Shown: piece by piece, positions 5,169 to 13,329 of the stretch | How positions within the stretch are numbered: the stretch's first letter is position 1 | Layout: each line of letters opens with the position of its first letter | Origin: Planctomycetota bacterium | Lineage (GTDB): Bacteria > Planctomycetota > SZUA-567 > H5-PLA8 | DNA length: 13,329 nt | Assembly (NCBI GenBank): GCA_038227875.1 | Contig: JBBRPR010000113.1 | Location: 1-13,329, forward strand | Direction of reading: 5' to 3' | Translations under genes and position numbers: made by a program | Notes under the pieces: model-generated | What the model saw: only the letters and a program-made list of their open reading frames with translations | Told to the model about the DNA's origin: nothing | Databases searched by the model: none

Positions 5169-5550
5169 GACGGGCCATCCCTTCCGATTTGCGCATATTC
5201 TCAAACTCACGCCGTGAGTTGATCTTTATAAGTAAAGCGATGCAACGATTGTGCCGCACACGTGCTCATCGCGGGCGGCATCACTGCGCACTCACAATCG
5301 ATGCGCCCCCCATGATTTGCAGGATTCCGCGCACACTGCAGGCTGCTCAACGTCGCAACTCACGACGTTTGAGTTCGCAGGAATGCAACAACGCCTCGTT
5401 AAGATGGGAAATCAAACTTGTACGGCTATTCCGACTCCGTTACTGAAGTCCAGAACTTGAATTATTGATATTCGGGTCTATATCTATTTATTTCATGATG
5501 TCACAGGCGAGGATTGGATGTCGGATGGCAACCCACTCCGGGGATCGAGC

Positions 5551-6579
5551 ATGACTCCACGAGAACGAATGGATCTGGTCTTCGCCTGCAAACACGCCGA
5601 TCGCGTTCCGTTTGTTCCCGCCATCTACGAACACAAGGCCTTCCTGCTGAACAAAACCCCATCTGAAGTGGCGCAAAGTGAAGACTTGATGGTCAACGGT
5701 GGCCTGGCGGAATTCGACACCTACCGGCCCGACTTACTGACCGTGGGTCTGGATGTCTACAACGTCGAAGCCGAAGCGCTGGGCTGCAAAGTCAAATACC
5801 ACGGCACCACTGACGTTCCAGGCGTTGAATCGCATTTCAGCAGCATCGATGGGCTGGTTGGAAGAAATCACGTCGATCCGGAACGCTCCGGACGCATGGG
5901 TCTATTTCTGCGCGCGGCCGAACGGCTCCACCAGCAACTGCGGGCTCAAGTCCATGTGCGCGGCGCGGTCTCCGGACCATTCAGCCTCAGTTGCGAATTA
6001 ATCGGCTGCGAGAACATGCTCATCGCGCTGCTGGAAGACACCTCAACAGCGGTCGACGTACTGGAAATCGCCGCGCAAACCTGCGGCGACTATGCCTGCG
6101 CGTTTATCAAGAGGGGCGTGGACGCCGTTATTTTTGACAGTCGCGCCGCTCCGCCCTTTGTCTCGCCGTCCACGTGGGAACGGCAACTCCTCCCCTGCTA
6201 CATGAAACTGACGGCACAAATGCGGCAGGCCGGCGCGCGCCATATTCCGCTGGTAATCGGCGGTAACACCACGTCTATTGTGCCGGTTCTCATTCGCACC
6301 GGCGCCACTCAATTCCTCTGTGATTGGGGGAGTAATTTCAATACATGGCGCGACACCTGCGCCGGGATTACGGCACCGTTTCGAGCGAATCTTGATGCGC
6401 GTCTGATTCACACCGGGACTGTCGCTGCGATCACCGCTCAAACGCAGGCGCTGCTCGAACAGGCTGCGAGTGTGCCAGGATTCATTTTGGGAACGGGTGT
6501 GTGCGCCTACGACATCAACCCCGCGAACATCCTGACCGTTCGCGAGATTCTGGAAACCCGTGCGCTCAAAGGGTCGTAA
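5551..6579 (+). CDS. Uroporphyrinogen decarboxylase (URO-D)/MtaA-CmuA superfamily TIM-barrel protein, function unknown
   Basis: Typical N-terminus MTPRERM.....DRVPFVP, plus YNVEAEALGCKV, DPERSGRM, GAVSGPFSL and the C-terminal GFILGTG...DINPANI. Start 5551 is preferred over 5518 because it matches the family N-terminus. Confidence 0.85.
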   Translation: MTPRERMDLVFACKHADRVPFVPAIYEHKAFLLNKTPSEVAQSEDLMVNGGLAEFDTYRPDLLTVGLDVYNVEAEALGCKVKYHGTTDVPGVESHFSSIDGLVGRNHVDPERSGRMGLFLRAAERLHQQLRAQVHVRGAVSGPFSLSCELIGCENMLIALLEDTSTAVDVLEIAAQTCGDYACAFIKRGVDAVIFDSRAAPPFVSPSTWERQLLPCYMKLTAQMRQAGARHIPLVIGGNTTSIVPVLIRTGATQFLCDWGSNFNTWRDTCAGITAPFRANLDARLIHTGTVAAITAQTQALLEQAASVPGFILGTGVCAYDINPANILTVREILETRALKGS

Positions 6580-6598
6580 AGCAGAGCAAAGGCCTCGA

Positions 6599-7750
6599 CT
6601 ATACTGGAATCGAAGTTTCACGCGCGGCCGCCAGCATGCGGATAAAATTTTTCGCTGGCACGCCGCTATGAATTGAATTCGACGAGCCCAGGATGTAGCC
6701 GCCCTGCCCAGCCAATCCGTGAATCAACCGCTGCACTTCATTGCGGATCTGCGCTTCCGTGCCGTCCACCAGCACCTTGCCGCAACTCATCCCGCCCCAC
6801 AACGTCAACTTCGGATAGCGCGTGCGCAATTTCATCAAATCCATTCCTGCATCGACATCAATTTCCCCATAGCCGTGAACTCCAGCCTCCAGGAACAGCA
6901 TGTCCGCGATACTGTAGGTGTCGCCGTCCGTGCGGAAGACATACGGTTTGCCCAGTTGGTCGGCCAGCGCGATGATTCGCTTGAGCGGCGGAAGCAGGAA
7001 TTCCCGGAAGGCCTTCGGGCCATAGACCACGCCGCGGTTGTCGGCCAGATCTCCTCCGGCCCAGAAACAGTCCGCGCCATGCGACGCATACTGCCTCATC
7101 GCAATCAGATTCATCTCGCAGAGACCATTCAAGTAACGATGAATCAACTCCGGCCCCTCAATCATCGCCGCAAGCCATTCTGCGTGAAACGGAACCGCCA
7201 GCCCTCCGCAGGGCGCACAGACGTATCGGTCAGTACCTGCTTTGCGCGTCAGGAGGTCGAATTCCAGCAAAGCCTGAGCGTCTGGTGTCCAACCGTTGGC
7301 CAGACTTTTTTCCATCGCTTCGACCTGCTCCTGGATCGCCGCCGCGCCGCGCTGCTTGACCGCATCGTCGCTGCAATCAAAGATGTCGCTGGACTCGTCA
7401 TAGCGATAGATCGAGAAGGATTTCTTCGGGTCTCCGTAGAGATACGTCGTCTCATCCAGTTTCTTTGTCGGCCGTTCAGTGTGACGCCACGGCATGCGGA
7501 TCAGATCGAAGTCCACGGTCTTCACCAGCGCAGCCACGTCGTCGATCATCGTCGCGACAAACTCCGCGTGGGCCGCCTCGCCCTTGAGCCACGCCTCACT
7601 CTCCCCGCGGCGCAGGCTCCCGCCGCCCGTCAAGGCGCTTCGCCCCAGGACCTCCGAAGCCACCGCCGAACACACGCTCTGCTCGAACACGGGCACACGA
7701 TCGGGCGCACGATGTTGAAAAGTCAGGCGAACCCGTTCTTTGGATGTCAT
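6599..7750 (-). CDS. URO-D superfamily protein, function unknown
   Basis: MTSKERVRLTFQHRAPDRVPVFE, GGDLADNRGVVYGPKAFREFLLP, GMDLMKLRTRYPKLTLWGG and GGYILGSSNSIHSGVPAKNF. Strong GGAGGAG RBS upstream. Confidence 0.88.
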   Translation of the reverse strand: MTSKERVRLTFQHRAPDRVPVFEQSVCSAVASEVLGRSALTGGGSLRRGESEAWLKGEAAHAEFVATMIDDVAALVKTVDFDLIRMPWRHTERPTKKLDETTYLYGDPKKSFSIYRYDESSDIFDCSDDAVKQRGAAAIQEQVEAMEKSLANGWTPDAQALLEFDLLTRKAGTDRYVCAPCGGLAVPFHAEWLAAMIEGPELIHRYLNGLCEMNLIAMRQYASHGADCFWAGGDLADNRGVVYGPKAFREFLLPPLKRIIALADQLGKPYVFRTDGDTYSIADMLFLEAGVHGYGEIDVDAGMDLMKLRTRYPKLTLWGGMSCGKVLVDGTEAQIRNEVQRLIHGLAGQGGYILGSSNSIHSGVPAKNFIRMLAAARETSIPV

Positions 7751-7776
7751 TGATCTCCTCCGGTCGTATCGCGATA

Positions 7777-7782
7777 AGTATA
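7777..7782 (-). promoter_or_regulatory. Candidate -10 box (TATACT) for the minus-strand URO-D gene
   Basis: TATACT on the minus strand in an AT-rich intergenic stretch about 27 nt upstream of the ATG. The adjacent palindrome TATCGCGATA is at 7767-7776. No clear -35. Confidence 0.4.
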
Positions 7783-7896
7783 CCTTCTTATCTTAAATTT
7801 CATCGTATAATTTGAATTCGGACTCGGCTTGTCCATCACTTAGCTACAGGTGAACGGATCGCGCGCTGCCTACGTGGGCAGGAACAGATTCACGCG

Positions 7897-9117
7897 CTAT
7901 TTCGCGCGGATGTTGTTCATGAAGGCCGACACGCTGCTGCACAGACGTTCAGCCTGCCGCGACAGTTCTCCCGCGGCGTCCTGAATCAGCGTAACTGAAA
8001 CTCCCGTTTCATGCGCGGCGGTATTCACGCCGGCGATGTTCCGGGTCACGTGAACCACTGCCTGAGCGGCGCGCTGCGTGTTTCGGCTGATCTCTTCGGT
8101 GGCGCCTTTCTGCTCGGCGATGGATGAGGAAATGAGGTTGGTGGATTCATTGACGCTCAGAATCGCCTTCGAAATCCTGGCAATGGCCGCGGCCGCTTCC
8201 GTCGAGGCCTTGTTCAAGGCCCGGATTTCCGTCTCAATATTGTCCGTCGCAGCGGCCGTTTCCTTCGAGAGCGCTTTCACTTCCGAAGCGACCACGCCAA
8301 AGCCTTTGCCCGCGGCGCCAGCGTGGGCCGCCTCAATCGTCGCGTTCAACGCCAGCAGATTGGTCTGGGAGGCGATGTCGTGGATCAGTTTCACCACGCT
8401 ACCGATGCGGGATTGCGCCTTGCAGAGCTCCTGTATTACGGCGTCCGTGCGGGTGGCTTCGGTGGCGGCGCTGTGAATCAGTTGCGCCGACTGCTGCGTC
8501 TGGCGGTCGATTTCCGCGGCCGAGGCCTGGAGTTCCGTGGCGGCCGAGGCCACCGAATCGACGCTGGCGGAACTTTCCTGCGAGGCGGACGTCACTGCTT
8601 CGGCACGCTCGGTCGTCTCATGGGACTGATCCGCCAGGGACTTGGCCGTCGCTTCGAATTCCGTCGCGGCGGACGCCACTGAATTGACCACCGTCTGCAC
8701 CGTCGTCTCGAATTCGTTGGCCAGCTGGTCCTGGCGCGCGCGAGCCGCGGCCAGCGCGGCGGCGCTGTTTTTCATTTCTTCGGTACCGGCGTTGATCAGC
8801 CGCGCGCCGTTCCGGAACGAACCGGGCAGCCCGCGCAGAATCACGCGGCGGTAGAATTTGCCCTTGGCCGCCGCATCCAGCGATGCGCTGGATTCCCGCA
8901 CGTAGGCATCGGTGATATCCAGCAGATGATTGATGGCGTCAACGCAACGGGAAAGCGGGCCGTCCGTGGGGCCGGTCAGCGCGCGAACTTCCAGATTGCC
9001 CCGGGCCGCCGCTTCGCAGACGCGGGCCAGTTCCAGCAATCCCGTCTCGAGCGTGGAATCCGTGGGCGGAGCGCTGGTGGCCGTATGCAGCGTCGATTCG
9101 GCAGTGAGCGTGGACAT
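7897..9117 (-). CDS. Soluble methyl-accepting chemotaxis protein (HAMP-like N-terminus plus MCP signalling domain, no TM helices)
   Basis: Signalling hairpin [37 protein letters not shown]; heptad coiled-coil flanks; N-terminal AARGNLEVR...AINHLLD HAMP-like segment; no hydrophobic span. Confidence 0.93.
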
Positions 9118-9660: not shown

Positions 9661-9860
9661 ACGATCCTCCACTCTGCAAATTCTGCCCGATAAGACCTCC
9701 GGCAACATGGGCAATGCATCTACAACAGATCCTATGCCAAGTAGTCGCAACAGGGCGCGGCGTCAGATACGAAAATTGGATTCTGCAAATTATGCGAGGG
9801 AGGCAGAGCGGGCGTGCACGCGGCCCAGGCGGCCGCGCGGTTGTCCATCGAAGAAAAAAA

Positions 9861-9885
9861 CGTCCCTGCGGGGATTCGAACGCCG
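9861..9885 (-). mobile_element. 3' fragment of a tRNA-Glu-like gene, probable att site (left boundary of an integrated element)
   Basis: Minus strand reads CGGCG-TTCGAAT-CCCCG-CAGGGAC-G-TTTTTTT: T-loop, 3' T-stem, acceptor 3' strand and discriminator G, as in tRNA-Glu (...GGGACG-CCA). The matching 5' acceptor strand GTCCCTG is absent upstream, so this is not an intact tRNA. Confidence 0.72.
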
Positions 9886-10010
9886 CTGGCGCTTGCGCCG
9901 CCGACTTGAAAGTTTCTGGAAACAAGTCGATATCTTCCTATGAAGAAGCTGAAACTCAGGCTCCAAACCAGAGCGCGGGTAATAGTCTTCCCGGAAGCAT
10001 TCCAGAGCCT

Positions 10011-10042
10011 TTTATACATAAAAACTATGCAGGGTTTATGCA
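10011..10042 (+). repeat. Three short direct repeats (TTTATACA, ACTATGCA, TTTATGCA), candidate integrase arm-type sites
   Basis: Repeats at 10011, 10024 and 10035, in an AT-rich patch about 130-160 bp inside the putative att core. Confidence 0.4.
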
Positions 10043-10142
10043 CGCCTTCCCTGACGACCTCGCAACTGTGGTTTCGAGTTGGGCGAAGCTGCCTGACGCG
10101 TTAAAGGCTGGCATCGTGGCAATGGTGAAGGCGGCGACCTAG
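10038..10142 (+). CDS. Short amphipathic peptide/ORF tail PDDLATVVSSWAKLPDALKAGIVAMVKAAT; start uncertain
   Basis: 3' end of track ORF 9636..10142. I recall this DLxxVVxxWxxLPxAxxAGIxAMV motif from att-adjacent ORFs in Planctomycetes (recollection, not searched). The frame stays open across the att fragment. Confidence 0.55.
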   Translation: MHAFPDDLATVVSSWAKLPDALKAGIVAMVKAAT

Positions 10143-10202
10143 CCTCAGAGCTCCTGATCCGAACGTGTAGCCTGCCGAACGATCTACCGCTACAATGCCC
10201 AC

Positions 10203-10337
10203 ATGTCCGCCAAGAAACCCCGCTCACTGTCGCCGCCAAAGCCCGCGCGCGTCACCTGCCTGCGCTGTGAACTGAAGTTCATGTCGCCGGATCGACGACA
10301 TATCCGGCTGTGCCCGAAGTGCCGGCAGCGGAGGTAG
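10203..10337 (+). CDS. 44-aa zinc-ribbon microprotein (CxxC-x14-CxxC)
   Basis: MSAKKPRSLSPPKPARVTCLRCELKFMSPDRRHIRLCPKCRQRR. TAGCCT(10168)-17 nt-TACAAT(10191-10196) lies 6 nt before the ATG, consistent with a leaderless transcript. Not in the ORF track. Confidence 0.7.
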   Translation: MSAKKPRSLSPPKPARVTCLRCELKFMSPDRRHIRLCPKCRQRR

Positions 10338-10338
10338 C

Positions 10339-10479
10339 GTGACCCTGGCATCGTTCCTCGACTTCACCGCCGACGTTTCCTTGTGGCCATTCCTGCCTCT
10401 TGCGCTTGCGCTCGTCGTTGCCATCGTAGCGTTTAGGAAGAGCCCGCCGCCCGGGCAGTACGCGCTCGCCATTACTTAA
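10339..10479 (+). CDS. 46-aa single-pass membrane peptide
   Basis: GTG start 1 nt after the upstream stop, with GGAGG 4 nt upstream. MTLASFLDFTADVSLWPFLPLALALVVAIVAFRKSPPPGQYALAIT has a hydrophobic span followed by RK. Confidence 0.45.
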   Translation: MTLASFLDFTADVSLWPFLPLALALVVAIVAFRKSPPPGQYALAIT

Positions 10480-11701
10480 CGGCATTCACGATTCGCCCAA
10501 TCTCCGACTGTATCGATTCCTTGTCCGTCGGCATTTTGATGAACCCCTGAACCGATAGCCTCACGGCTCGTTCCGCAACCGCGTCATTCATGTCTACGTC
10601 TCCGACAAGCAGGATGGGAATCTTGCGAGTGGCTTTGTCCGCGCGAACTTTCTCGGCCAACTTCCAAGGCTCGAATTCTTTTGCACCCAGATTGATCACG
10701 AACAACGCCGGGTAGTGGTCGAGCGACTTGAGCAAGGCGTCGACATGGTTTCTTGCGAGAATCGGCTCATGGCCCAGCGCCCGAACCGCATCGACGACAA
10801 CATTCATTCGACCGTCCAGCGCGTGTGTAATGAGCACACGTCGTCTGCCGACATCGTTGCGCGCCCTTAGAAAAGCCTCGAAGTCCCGCACCCGAACTTT
10901 CCAGAATCCGTTCGCCAACTTAACGGCGGGCAGTCGTCTCGTGTGGATCCACTGTTTCACTGCCTCGCCCGTCACGTTAAGAATCTTGCCGATGTCGTTC
11001 GGTGACAGGAGTCGCTCTGTGTCGGTCGGCGCTTTCGGCGACTGAACCCTCTGCGCTGCGGTGGTGACTCGATCCAGCATTGGTTTTACTGGTTCGGCTG
11101 TCGGCCGGTCCTCGATGGTCATCGCTTTCAGTCTCGGTATTGGGTTGGCAATCTGGTCGAACAGGGTGCGGGACTGCGAGAGCAAACGATAATGGCGCTT
11201 GCATAAGCCGCGAGCGACGACCTCCCCCGCGCACTGTGAATACTTTTCGTCTGAATACTCCCGCACGACGCAGCGCCCTTTCTGTACCTCGTGGCCGCGG
11301 GCGTACACGATGGTCGGCTGTGGCTTGGAGAAGTCGTTGAGGTTCAAATCGGGTCTCTGCCATATGCCGGCATAGTGATGCCTGCATAGGCCCCGGCGGG
11401 TCGCTGGCGCTTTGCAGGGGATGTCGTTTTCAAGGAGGGCGCAGATGCCTTCCCGCGCATTGGGATTCGGTTTGAGGTCTATCCTCCGGCTTTGACGCGG
11501 CAGCGCGTACGTCTCAAGCAATCCTTTGCGCGTCATATAACTGCGATGGCGATTGCAAAGCCCACGAGACGCCACGGGGTTGGAGCATGGAATGTCATCC
11601 TCGATCAAGATGCACAGTCCCGACGATGGGTCCGCCTTCTTCGTGAAGATTCGCGTTCGCTGCTCCGATACCGCCGAGCTACCAACAACATCTTTCTGCA
11701 T
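10472..11701 (-). CDS. Regulator fusion: three C-C-C-H (RGLCxxH) putative zinc fingers, excisionase-like HTH, atypical receiver domain
   Basis: Ligand sets C30/C39/C49/H52, C87/C96/C106/H109 and C144/C157/C167/H170. HTH_17-like segment LLSPNDIGKILNVTGEAVKQWIHTRRLPAVKLANGFWKVRVRDFEAFL (about 231-278). CheY-like fold from about 287 (RRVLIT...PALFVINL...KIPILLVG...GFIKMP). Confidence 0.85.
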   Translation of the reverse strand: MQKDVVGSSAVSEQRTRIFTKKADPSSGLCILIEDDIPCSNPVASRGLCNRHRSYMTRKGLLETYALPRQSRRIDLKPNPNAREGICALLENDIPCKAPATRRGLCRHHYAGIWQRPDLNLNDFSKPQPTIVYARGHEVQKGRCVVREYSDEKYSQCAGEVVARGLCKRHYRLLSQSRTLFDQIANPIPRLKAMTIEDRPTAEPVKPMLDRVTTAAQRVQSPKAPTDTERLLSPNDIGKILNVTGEAVKQWIHTRRLPAVKLANGFWKVRVRDFEAFLRARNDVGRRRVLITHALDGRMNVVVDAVRALGHEPILARNHVDALLKSLDHYPALFVINLGAKEFEPWKLAEKVRADKATRKIPILLVGDVDMNDAVAERAVRLSVQGFIKMPTDKESIQSEIGRIVNAVK

Positions 11702-11731
11702 GTCATTCGCCTCGTAACAATAAGGTTCCAG

Positions 11732-12025
11732 CTAGGGCGCAGCTTTTCGGAGTCGTTCTTTCAACTCCGATTCGGCCATCAAGATCATTGTCCCTTCAAC
11801 TTTGAAACTCAGTCCATCTCGACGAAGTTGCTGCAACACAGCGCACGTGGTCTTGTACTTCCGGATTGCGTCTCCGGCGGGGATCCAGCCAGCGGGAGGG
11901 ACAATGCGCCCCTTGGGGCGGCCCTTGCAGTTGGGATTCGCCTTCTTGAACCCCTTGCGCCAGCGGAGAAGGCTCCGCGGGTCCACGCCGAGATTCCGTG
12001 CGTACTTCTTCAAGTCTTCGTCCAT
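11732..12025 (-). CDS. Small basic DNA-binding protein: HTH, GRPKG linker, excisionase-like HTH (paralog A)
   Basis: GGAGG RBS. ARNLGVDPRSLLRWRK is HTH-like. Gap-free similarity to 12414..12719. Confidence 0.8.
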   Translation of the reverse strand: MDEDLKKYARNLGVDPRSLLRWRKGFKKANPNCKGRPKGRIVPPAGWIPAGDAIRKYKTTCAVLQQLRRDGLSFKVEGTMILMAESELKERLRKAAP

Positions 12026-12038
12026 GCGTCCTCCCGCT

Positions 12039-12317
12039 CTACGCGCACCTCACCCGCAGCGCCATCAACCGCCCAGCCTTGAACTTTACGCGCCGGCGTG
12101 CAGGCACACGTACTTTCACACCCGTTAGTGGATTCCGTGCCGTACGCGGCGTGGTGGTGCGCGTTTCAAACACGCCAAAGTCCCGCAGCTCGATCCTACC
12201 ATCCCGCGCCAGCGCTTCGACGATGTGGTCGAACGTGAGCTGAACCACCGCTTGGACCTGCTGATGCTGGACGCCGGTTCGGACTGCAATCTGATTCACG
12301 ATGTCGGCCTTGGTCAT
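12039..12317 (-). CDS. HU/IHF-family histone-like DNA-binding protein (IHF-beta-like)
   Basis: MTKADIVNQIA...GRIELRDFGVFE...PRTARNPLTGVKVRVPARRRVKFKAGRLM. ATG 12317 with GGAG 6 nt upstream. Confidence 0.95.
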   Translation of the reverse strand: MTKADIVNQIAVRTGVQHQQVQAVVQLTFDHIVEALARDGRIELRDFGVFETRTTTPRTARNPLTGVKVRVPARRRVKFKAGRLMALRVRCA

Positions 12318-12340
12318 CAATGTCTCCGCGCGGGGCCGAC

Positions 12341-12405
12341 AGTTTACGGGCAGCGCGGTTTGTGGTGCAAGCGGCTATTGCACGCCAACACCCGCGCCTT
12401 ACCAT
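12341..12405. promoter_or_regulatory. Back-to-back divergent sigma70-like promoters whose -35 boxes form an inverted repeat (GTGCAA-N7-TTGCAC)
   Basis: Rightward: TTGCAC 12378-12383, 16 nt, TACCAT 12400-12405, ATG at 12414. Leftward (minus strand): TTGCAC 12370-12365, 18 nt, TAAACT 12346-12341, then RBS and the IHF/HU start. Confidence 0.62.
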
Positions 12406-12413
12406 CACGTCAG

Positions 12414-12719
12414 ATGCGCAAACCACTCACCCCCGCTGAGCTCAAAGCCATGGCCGCGCGCCTGGGCGTGCCGCTGCAGGACGTGGCACGCTGGCACCGG
12501 GTCGAGGGACCACGCTACGTCTCAAAGTTGCCTGGCCGCCCAAAAGGTAAGCCTCAGCGGCCGGCCGGAACGTTAACGGTGCGGGACGCGATGGTGAAGT
12601 TTGGCATCACTGCGGCGGAGTTGAGGAAGTGGCGCGAGCAGGGGCTCCCGTACCGGACGGTGGGCACGATGATATTGATGAAGGAAACCGACTTGAAGGC
12701 GTGGATTCAGAAGCGGTGA
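12414..12719 (+). CDS. Small basic DNA-binding protein: HTH, GRPKG linker, excisionase-like HTH (paralog B), probably leaderless
   Basis: MRKPLTPAELKAMAARLGVPLQDVARW...GRPKGKPQRPAGTLTVRDAMVKFGITAAELRKWREQGLPYRTVGTMILMKETDLKAWIQKR (101 aa). Start reassigned from 12225, which would overlap the IHF gene, based on alignment with paralog A. Confidence 0.82.
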   Translation: MRKPLTPAELKAMAARLGVPLQDVARWHRVEGPRYVSKLPGRPKGKPQRPAGTLTVRDAMVKFGITAAELRKWREQGLPYRTVGTMILMKETDLKAWIQKR

Positions 12720-12817
12720 GCGTAGCTGGCGGGCAACTACGGTCCGAGGATCCGCCCCGTCTGACCAACGACATTAGTAAATCCCGGCGCACCAAGGATA
12801 GTCGATAGCTTGATCAG

Positions 12818-13012
12818 CTACGTGTGGCCTTGCTTATCAGTGGTTAACTTTTGCACCGCTTCGCGCAACATTGTGGCGACGTCCTGACCGCTCTTCTCGG
12901 CAAACAGATGAACGGCACGGATCTCTGATTGAGAAATGGGGAAGCTAAGAACGATTGAAGTCGCTGTAGCTCTGCGCTGATGAGCTGATATCTTTGATCT
13001 TGAACTGGCCAT
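12818..13012 (-). CDS. Putative ribbon-helix-helix (CopG-like) protein
   Basis: Alternating strand IVLSFPI, helix SQSEIRAVHLFAEKSG, helix DVATMLREAVQKL. Start is 13012 or 13024. Confidence 0.55.
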   Translation of the reverse strand: MASSRSKISAHQRRATATSIVLSFPISQSEIRAVHLFAEKSGQDVATMLREAVQKLTTDKQGHT

Positions 13013-13068
13013 GTTAATACCCATATCCCAGTCTGATCATATATGACGGCAGTCCATTTCAAGCCAAT

Positions 13069-13260
13069 TCATGGTTCCAGTTTCACTCCGTTGCCGAGGT
13101 CCAGTGTCTGCGTGGGCGGCAAGTTCACGCGCTTGGCGTAGTCGGCGACGGACTCCACGCCGTCCCAGAGCGGAAAGGCCCGCGCAGGTTCGGCCGCCGA
13201 CAACGAGGCTGCGAACGCCAGCACGATCAGAGGCAAAATACGCAGATTGCAGCAGTTCAT
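13069..13260 (-). pseudogene. Truncated N-terminus of a secreted formylglycine-generating enzyme (FGE/SUMF1)-family protein
   Basis: Signal peptide LRILPLIVLAFAASLSA|AEP, then FPLWDGVESVADYAKRVNLPPTQTLDLGNGVKLE-P-stop. TLDLGNGVKLE normally continues as (L/M)VLIPAGxFxMG into the FGE domain; no such continuation is seen downstream. Start could be 13260, 13284 or 13287. Confidence 0.68.
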
Positions 13261-13329
13261 ACGATTGGATGCTCGGCCATGCATCATCCACGCTTTATAC
13301 CCCTTTGCTCGCTACGCTCGCAACGGCAA

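Follow-up and report, generated by a model that had tools for sequence, protein, structure and literature searches.

In a contig from a Planctomycetota bacterium, two small paralogous proteins of a rare and unnamed family, designated A and B, are encoded on either side of an IHF/HU-family gene. On balance, A, B, and the product of this gene, an accessory IHF-like paralog, probably form a chromosomal regulatory or architectural module. The window analyzed here is the whole contig, with a length of 13,329 nt (C113; JBBRPR010000113.1 of the GenBank assembly GCA_038227875.1); the assembly comprises 9.3 Mb in 176 contigs and is 88% complete. A and B are paralogs with the same fold, they adjoin the IHF-like gene, and the other copies of the family in this genome are single, dispersed genes. 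We infer that both proteins bind DNA, that they use a basic arm in the minor groove, that A is co-transcribed with the IHF-like gene, and that A and B cooperate with the IHF-like protein.

Gene order around the IHF-like gene

The IHF-like gene (12039–12320, minus strand), encoding an accessory paralog of 92–93 amino acids (aa), is the first gene of a string on the minus strand. It is followed, after 13 nt, by the gene for A (11732–12025, minus strand; 97 aa) and, after a further 30 nt, by a gene for a 409-aa protein (10472–11701, minus strand) that combines three Cys/His repeats with an HTH_17 domain and a receiver-like domain. A Shine-Dalgarno-like GGGAGGA lies directly 5′ of the ATG of A, within the 13-nt gap, and the three genes are probably co-transcribed. 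The gene for B (12414–12719, plus strand; 101 aa), a protein with the same architecture as A, is divergent from this string and is separated from the IHF-like gene by 93 nt (12321–12413), presumably a shared control region. B lies inside a longer open reading frame (ORF; 12225–12719), and its start at 12414 is consistent with the N-termini of the family members P0002, P0007, and P0009. The original prediction, which was made from the sequence of the window, had placed both ORFs, with an IHF/HU-family gene between them, at these positions, and all three are indeed present there. It had further described A and B as divergently transcribed genes that bracket the IHF gene. The geometry is right, but rather than standing apart as a divergent unit of its own, A is apparently a downstream operon partner of IHF.

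The predicted paralogy of A and B was corroborated by BLASTP, with 36 of 92 positions identical (39%), 57% positives, one gap, and an E-value of 5e-17. The block from GRPKG to LK is free of gaps, as predicted, and contains 26 identities in 55 positions, counted by eye on the BLASTP alignment. The predicted recognition-helix residues differ between the two proteins. Altogether, three HTH_17 proteins and the IHF gene are encoded within 2.2 kb. A script scan of the 93-nt region yielded the palindrome GTGCAA-N7-TTGCAC (12365–12383), a candidate operator; no element like it was found upstream of the four copies of the family outside of the window. Rfam and tRNA scans of the window gave no match, and a scan of positions 9700–13329 gave no match to a sigma-70-type promoter and one weak terminator-like site.

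Architecture and fold of A and B

AlphaFold models, built from an alignment of 36 family members, reached a mean predicted local distance difference test (pLDDT) score of 88.8 for B and 85.2 for A. Both have the identical three-part topology, that is, two N-terminal helices, a basic Pro/Gly linker of about 17 residues modeled with lower confidence, and a C-terminal winged helix. In the model of A, helices at residues 3–12 and 16–27 are followed by a disordered stretch (28–46) and by a beta-alpha-alpha-beta-beta-alpha unit (47–95). The linker, which is devoid of secondary structure, holds the basic GRPKG motif and, three residues further on, an RPxG motif that leads into the first strand. Seven positions (in B numbering, W27, R49, P50, G52, R74, G77, and E91) are conserved in at least 90% of the 36 members. 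Thus, RPxG, represented by R49, P50, and G52, is better conserved than GRPKG. In several members, there is an additional GRPR motif close to the C-terminus.

The two proteins had originally been read as a succession of a helix-turn-helix (HTH), an AT-hook-like GRP motif, and a winged helix of the Xis/MerR type. The C-terminal winged helix is supported by Pfam, AlphaFold, and VIA-align, and GRPKG can indeed be called AT-hook-like. The N-terminal "HTH," however, is just a two-helix hairpin with an HTH-like sequence pattern, namely, that of helices 2 and 3 of an HTH. The canonical AT-hook has an RGRP core flanked by basic residues. GRPKG is not of this canonical type, with the residue preceding GRP being Pro in B, Lys in A, and variable across the family, and the Pfam AT_hook profile gave no match at E ≤ 1.

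B passes the Pfam gathering score for HTH_17 (PF12728; 30.1 bits vs. 27) with residues 54–101. Among the 36 family members, 21 match HTH_17 and 7 match MerR_1 at E ≤ 0.01. HTH_Tnp_1 is matched weakly by residues 6–28 of A (E = 0.011) and, at E ≤ 0.01, by five of the 36 members (best 2.8e-5), all of these matches being below the Pfam cut-off. No family in Pfam, NCBIfam, PHROG, or PADLOC covers the whole protein. TIGR01764 scored 15.6 bits against a cut-off of 28.8, and PHROG 66, annotated as "excisionase and transcriptional regulator," was matched at E = 7e-5. A sequence search of the PDB returned nothing below E = 0.06, and the neighbors in the ESM Atlas were all generic HTH_17 proteins (scores of 0.86–0.88).

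With VIA-align, the C-terminal segment of about 50 residues aligned to winged helices of Xis, MerR, and DNA-packaging proteins with Z-scores of 5–6.9 and a root-mean-square deviation (rmsd) of 1.6–2.3 Å. The best match was 6hn7, an E. coli pathogenicity-island packaging-redirection entry (Z 6.9, rmsd 1.6 Å), and the others included the Xis of mycobacteriophage Pukovnik (6.5), the viral DNA-packaging motor entry 7lxs (6.2), which has near relatives designated as small terminase subunits (7lw0, 7lwr), BldC (6.1), GIsul2 Xis (6.0), RdfS (5.5), Tn916 Xis (5.2), MerR-type regulators (5.3–5.8), the DNA-binding domain of pSK1 Par (5.3), and RacA (5.0). Z-scores below 8 are common with this method, as are scores of 5–7 for small domains, and none of the rows that Foldseek returned against the PDB reached E ≤ 1e-3. 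The fold is thus assigned from the VIA-align matches combined with the HTH_17 matches of B and of 21 of the 36 members.

The C-terminal domain belongs to a very large superfamily, in which it is nothing unusual. The novelty resides in the N-terminal hairpin with the basic arm and in the probable association with an accessory IHF. In the literature, GRPKG and helix-turn-helix were not found together in any paper, and nothing relevant was returned for Planctomycetes combined with IHF, excisionase, and MerR, or for AT-hook combined with excisionase, winged helix, and MerR.

Rarity, copies, and phylogeny of the family

A and B had been proposed to represent one novel family, and a profile search identified them as copies of an unnamed, rare one. 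When run on 1.84 billion representative proteins, a profile built from eight sequences collected 86 hits at E ≤ 1e-3, of which 30 remained at 1e-10 and 4 at 1e-30. The ten family clusters examined contain one or two sequences each, come from metagenome-type sources, and bear "hypothetical protein" as their sole name. There was no family match in 40 relatives of this bacterium, in 61 other genomes of its class, or in 400 sampled genomes of the phylum; in this last set, just 12 candidates were scored per genome. The first two of these tallies include one genome flagged as unpublished (G017), which has no family match and, in the comparison of the IHF gene with 20 relatives, one IHF match. Likewise, no relatives of the family were found in viral contigs, phage records, or plasmid records. 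Patterns derived from alignment A2 and from the NCBI-sourced tandem member P0014 found no relatives in 185,579 species genomes either, which is weak evidence given that the patterns were narrow.

The genome studied here contains six intact copies of the family in five loci, and one fragment. All four copies outside of the window are single genes, and none is located beside an IHF gene. The copy on contig C3 lies beside a gene for a GFO/IDH/MocA oxidoreductase and downstream of a large gene, which was read as mutL from its N-terminal sequence. The copy on C100 (L009 5702–8449) is located directly downstream of a gene for a hybrid histidine kinase-receiver and two genes for stand-alone receivers, and the copies on C30 and C130 are near genes for an adenosine deaminase and a cytochrome P460-like protein, respectively. 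The copies thus sit beside housekeeping or signaling genes, and the family genes are chromosomal and stable. When the window is included, a family member adjoins receiver-domain proteins at two of the five loci of the genome.

A scan of metagenomes gave one locus, L023, which also contains a single family copy without IHF, in this case beside CobT-VWA and AAA_5 genes. As to whether homologs occur as divergent pairs beside IHF genes, the four other copies in the genome and that of L023 are single and lack an IHF neighbor. The CobT-type VWA protein of L023 (2984–5269, minus strand) has 761 aa and a 54%-identical relative on C144 of the present genome, and the AAA_5 ATPase (7610–9039, minus strand) is apparently split into two overlapping ORFs.

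In a maximum likelihood tree of the 36 members, A and B fall in different clades. A groups with P0008 (support 100/99), P0002 is the partner of B (97/82), and P0004 is that of the C30 copy (100/99). P0008 is 79% identical to A, P0002, encoded on a contig of 4343 nt, is 78% identical to B, and P0003 is of the B type (63%). A and the C130 copy share a distinct form of the linker. From this placement in separate clades, and from the metagenomic ortholog that each of the two proteins has, it follows that the pair did not arise by a recent tandem duplication. It juxtaposes two old sub-lineages, each of which has been kept in at least one related organism.

The IHF-like gene and its association with the family

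The IHF-like protein matches Bac_DNA_binding with 94.8 bits (cut-off 22.4). The IHF alpha and beta profiles score 68.1 bits, below their equivalog cut-offs of 111 and 115, and HU profiles score 33–35 bits. Judged by these scores, the gene belongs to the IHF/HU superfamily, nearer to IHF than to HU but below the IHF equivalogs. Its closest paralog, on C33, is 77% identical. There is no close ortholog in 20 relatives, whose best match is 58% identical, similar to the copies on C20 and C89 of the present genome. At 11 best-hit IHF loci from the relatives, sigma-factor genes are flanking genes in at least 6, and an HTH_17 or MerR neighbor within about 1.5 kb was found in none. The link of the family with this IHF looks specific.

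The C33 paralog (L012 2200–3829; C33 76199–77828) is divergent from a gene for a 169-aa MerR_1 regulator, with a gene for a BLUF blue-light sensor downstream. As this paralog, like the one in the window, is divergent from a gene of the MerR type, an accessory IHF gene next to a gene for a winged helix of the MerR/Xis type is an arrangement found more than once in this genome. Further along C33, there are two fragments of IHF and one of B (82% identical), remnants which indicate that the module has been duplicated and has decayed at least once.

A word-based homolog search located the A ortholog P0008 and an IHF ortholog, P0095 (76% identical), both on ENA contigs of 1478 nt, and the B-type P0003 and a further IHF ortholog, P0100 (71%), both on ENA contigs of 3389 nt. 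For P0002, with its 4343-nt contig, the search list contained no IHF partner of equal contig size. With about a dozen contig sizes for the family and seven for IHF, far fewer than one equal pair is expected by chance, according to a rough estimate and not a computation. Because equal sizes are unlikely to arise by chance, the adjacency of IHF with A and of IHF with B probably recurs in two metagenome contigs. In the assembled contigs of three DNA runs, no contig of a relative was found that spans A, IHF, and B.

Proposed function and closest known systems

In the regulatory or architectural module that we favor, the C-terminal winged helix (HTH_17) would read the major groove, and the basic arm, GRPKG...RPxG, which runs into the first strand, would lie in the adjacent minor groove. 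The two-helix N-terminal module would provide a second contact, either with DNA or with protein. The ihf-like gene, the gene for A, and the gene for the HTH_17 protein with the putative pseudo-receiver domain (the 409-aa protein, see below) would be co-transcribed, and B would be read divergently from the same 93-nt region. The co-expressed IHF-like protein would bend the DNA, and A, B, and the HTH_17 pseudo-receiver protein would assemble at the 93-nt region, and probably elsewhere. This assembly on bent DNA would set transcription, in the manner of effector-less MerR-like proteins such as BldC. BldC is reported to be a MerR-like protein of 68 residues that has neither a dimerization nor an effector domain and occupies direct repeats in the form of cooperative multimers (PMC5859096), which shows how a MerR-like domain can regulate without an effector. 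RdfS is reported as an example of the same fold serving both excision and transcription (PMC11963761).

Of the known systems, the BldC of Streptomyces (PDB 6amk, 6ama) resembles A and B in being a small, stand-alone MerR-like winged helix without an effector or coiled-coil domain, and in being chromosomal and regulatory. Its fold superposes with a Z-score of 6.1 and an rmsd of 2.2 Å over 50 residues, at a sequence identity of 14%. However, BldC, with its 68 residues, lacks the N-terminal helical hairpin and the GRPKG/RPxG arm, and we know of no pairing of BldC with IHF. The MerR regulators SoxR (2zhh), TipAL (2vz4), and CueR (6xh7) also have a winged helix that superposes on that of A and B (Z 4.4–5.6). 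In contrast to these regulators, A and B have no more than about 10 residues after the winged helix, lack the long dimerization helix and the effector-binding domain, and are extended at the N-terminus. The same fold is found in proteins of the Xis type and in other recombination directionality factors (RDFs), that is, Pukovnik Xis (4j2n), GIsul2 Xis (8c3t), RdfS (8dgl), and Tn916 Xis (1y6u), with Z-scores of 5.2–6.5, but A and B carry an extra 45–50 residues on the N-terminal side of it, and neither an integrase nor attachment (att) sites were found nearby. The Gly-Arg-Pro arm (GRPR) that lies in the minor groove and precedes the HTH in the Hin and Gin recombinases and in paired-like transposase domains presumably resembles the arm of A and B and suggests a combined reading of the minor and the major groove. 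A and B differ from those proteins in the absence of a catalytic domain and in having an HTH of the winged MerR/Xis type, and they gave no sequence match to them in any library. Lastly, TraN of the Enterococcus plasmid pIP501 (4p0z), a protein of about 110 residues with excisionase-like HTH units, was the top full-length row of Foldseek. This match was not significant (E 0.068, TM 0.42, rmsd 13 Å), and TraN belongs to a conjugation operon, of which there is none in the window.

If the proposed module exists, A and B would represent a compact and hitherto unnamed way to extend a MerR/Xis winged helix, by a minor-groove arm and a second helical module, with a dedicated IHF paralog. The effector-less MerR-like regulators, best known from BldC, would gain a further family, and the module would offer a way into gene regulation in an uncultured and little-studied lineage from sediment. 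Since the family has very few members, and these are made of familiar domains, the wider impact would be modest.

Several observations weigh against this interpretation. A itself is below every Pfam cut-off and has no HTH_17 match at E ≤ 1, so that its membership in HTH_17 rests on its paralogy with B and on its fold. The fold, in turn, does not discriminate between functions, because excisionases and packaging proteins are as numerous as transcription factors among the top matches. The 93-nt region contains no repeated operators, its sole inverted repeat being GTGCAA-N7-TTGCAC with arms of 6 nt, and a script scan revealed no motif common to the upstream regions of the six family copies. The probable recurrence elsewhere of the IHF–A and IHF–B adjacency was deduced from equal contig sizes and not from sequence. 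Furthermore, the contig ends about 600 nt beyond B, and the neighbors on that side lie off the contig. Finally, the decayed copies of IHF and B on C33, together with a truncated gene at about position 13072 that is described in the next section, show that rearrangement or duplication has taken place in this segment, and such a history is also compatible with a mobile origin.

A far more speculative version of the regulatory module, which we consider unlikely, would be an integrase-free, intasome-like complex in which two winged-helix proteins derived from Xis heteromerize on DNA bent by IHF. Such a domesticated excision apparatus would act as an architectural switch that controls the HTH_17 regulator with the putative pseudo-receiver, as well as other targets, and would be a conserved module of one uncultured lineage.

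Alternative explanations

The alternative that survives best, although it also appears unlikely, is that A and B are excisionases that form, together with the IHF-like protein, the excisive intasome of an element whose integrase lies off the contig. IHF is a classical cofactor of lambda-type excision, and Xis/RDF proteins classically cooperate with it. The winged helix of A and B matches four excisionases in the VIA-align comparison described above, in addition to PHROG 66. The contig ends 600 nt past B, and several integrase genes elsewhere in the assembly are located at contig ends. Between B and the contig end, positions 13069–13309 (minus strand) encode the first 71 codons, the signal peptide region, of a multi-copy family of FGE/SUMF1-like secreted proteins. 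This fragment is 92% identical to the end of contig C135, and both contigs end in the repeat. As the similarity and the reading frame both stop at about 13072, it is the 5′ part of a gene that was cut off at the junction of a rearrangement. An independent Logan contig of 4.8 kb, from the probable source sample, spans positions 9700–13137, and thus the junction is not peculiar to one assembler. Such a junction, like the decayed IHF and B copies on C33, would be in keeping with an excisable element.

However, the proposal that A and B are a pair of RDFs found no support in the surroundings of the genes. No integrase, tRNA, flanking direct repeats, or att-like repeats were detected in the 13.3 kb of the window. 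Matches to the integrase profile PF00589 were absent from C113 as well as from C3, C100, C130, and C33. None of the 19 matches in the genome comes closer than 50 kb to a copy of the family; the match on C30 and the copy on that contig are 58 kb apart. The four other copies are single genes among housekeeping genes, the family has no phage, plasmid, or viral-contig relatives, and the composition of the region from 9.7 to 13.3 kb is unremarkable, its GC content being like that of the rest of the window. In addition, the orthologs of A, B, and the C30 copy have been kept as separate lineages, which argues against excisionases and agrees with a regulatory or architectural module.

The idea of a switch of the cI/Cro type, whose two proteins would compete for, or heterodimerize on, one operator, had been put forward in the original prediction. 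If bistable, it would have A and B each repress the promoter of the other from operators in the 93-nt region, possibly through competition or heterodimers. It has in its favor that two paralogous DNA-binding proteins with different recognition-helix residues are encoded divergently across 93 nt that contain a palindrome. We nevertheless regard it as improbable, slightly more so than the excisionase explanation. Multiple operators are missing, with a single palindrome having 6-nt arms, and A is the second and not the first gene of its three-gene string. There is no prophage immunity region, the window contains no phage structural or lysis genes, and the other members of the family are single genes. 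Moreover, the divergence of A and B is far older than any local duplication into the present arrangement.

Still less probable is that A and B are higher-order organizers of DNA, winged-helix proteins of the centromere, anchoring, or packaging type comparable to RacA, pSK1 Par, or the N-terminal domain of small terminases, which would cover repeated sites jointly with IHF instead of regulating specific genes. The fold matches to 7lxs, RacA, and pSK1 Par would be in accord with this function, as would the clustering of three HTH_17 proteins with the IHF gene in 2.2 kb, but neither a ParA, nor a large terminase subunit, nor an array of repeats is found nearby, and Z-scores of that size are, as stated above, common for small domains. 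Least of all do we favor domesticated DNA-binding domains of transposases, either paired-like ones of the Tc1/mariner/IS630 type or an HTH like that of IS3 OrfA: a basic GRP linker between an HTH-like module and a second module that binds DNA is, we assume, reminiscent of paired-like transposase domains, and the weak HTH_Tnp_1 matches point in the same direction, but these scores are below the Pfam cut-off, the C-terminal module has a winged MerR/Xis fold and not a homeodomain-like HTH, and no DDE domain or terminal inverted repeats surround any copy.

Two further candidates were rejected. A role in defense was suggested by a weak HTH match to mad1 in PADLOC (E = 4.5e-5), but there are no defense genes around. 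For an antitoxin, the AbiEi_4-like match (E = 0.0018) is below the cut-off and there is no adjacent toxin gene.

The 409-aa protein and small ORFs

The 409-aa protein contains a Pfam HTH_17 domain at residues 231–281 (30.3 bits), followed by an NCBIfam match to a PleD-type receiver at residues 281–397 (E = 8.9e-7), whereas Pfam Response_reg gave no match at E ≤ 1. Aligned by MAFFT with three canonical receivers from the same genome, the domain has Asn in the column of the phospho-acceptor and lacks the acidic pair. The protein is 15–17% identical to those receivers, at which level the alignment is approximate. Judged from these positions, the receiver-like domain looks like a pseudo-receiver. 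The three Cys/His repeats are zinc-ribbon-like and gave weak matches to DUF5763 and to PHROGs of phage HNH endonucleases. The Cys-rich part is missing from three paralogs of about 210 aa, which are encoded on C26, C55, and C1.

In the gap downstream of this gene (9751–10471), which at first sight is empty, there are two conserved small ORFs on the plus strand, of 34 aa (10038–10142) and 44 aa (10203–10337), neither of which has a Pfam match. The 44-aa ORF contains two CxxC pairs and is zinc-ribbon-like. Both ORFs are also present on C11 (at about 20.1–20.4 kb), and the zinc-ribbon ORF is found a further time on C33 (at about 77.97–78.09 kb), beside an IHF fragment. Pairs of genes of the uroporphyrinogen decarboxylase family (URO-D-like) are located at 5518–7750 of the window, and genes that are similar by eye occur on C11 (20603–22831), next to the copy of the small ORFs. 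The joint presence of the URO-D-like genes and the small ORFs on C11 hints at a larger duplicated segment. On the other side of the locus, just downstream of B, an ORF of 68 aa (12818–13024, minus strand) has no match in Pfam, NCBIfam, PHROGs, or PADLOC. Judged by eye, its C-terminal half looks like a small protein of the ribbon-helix-helix or antitoxin type.

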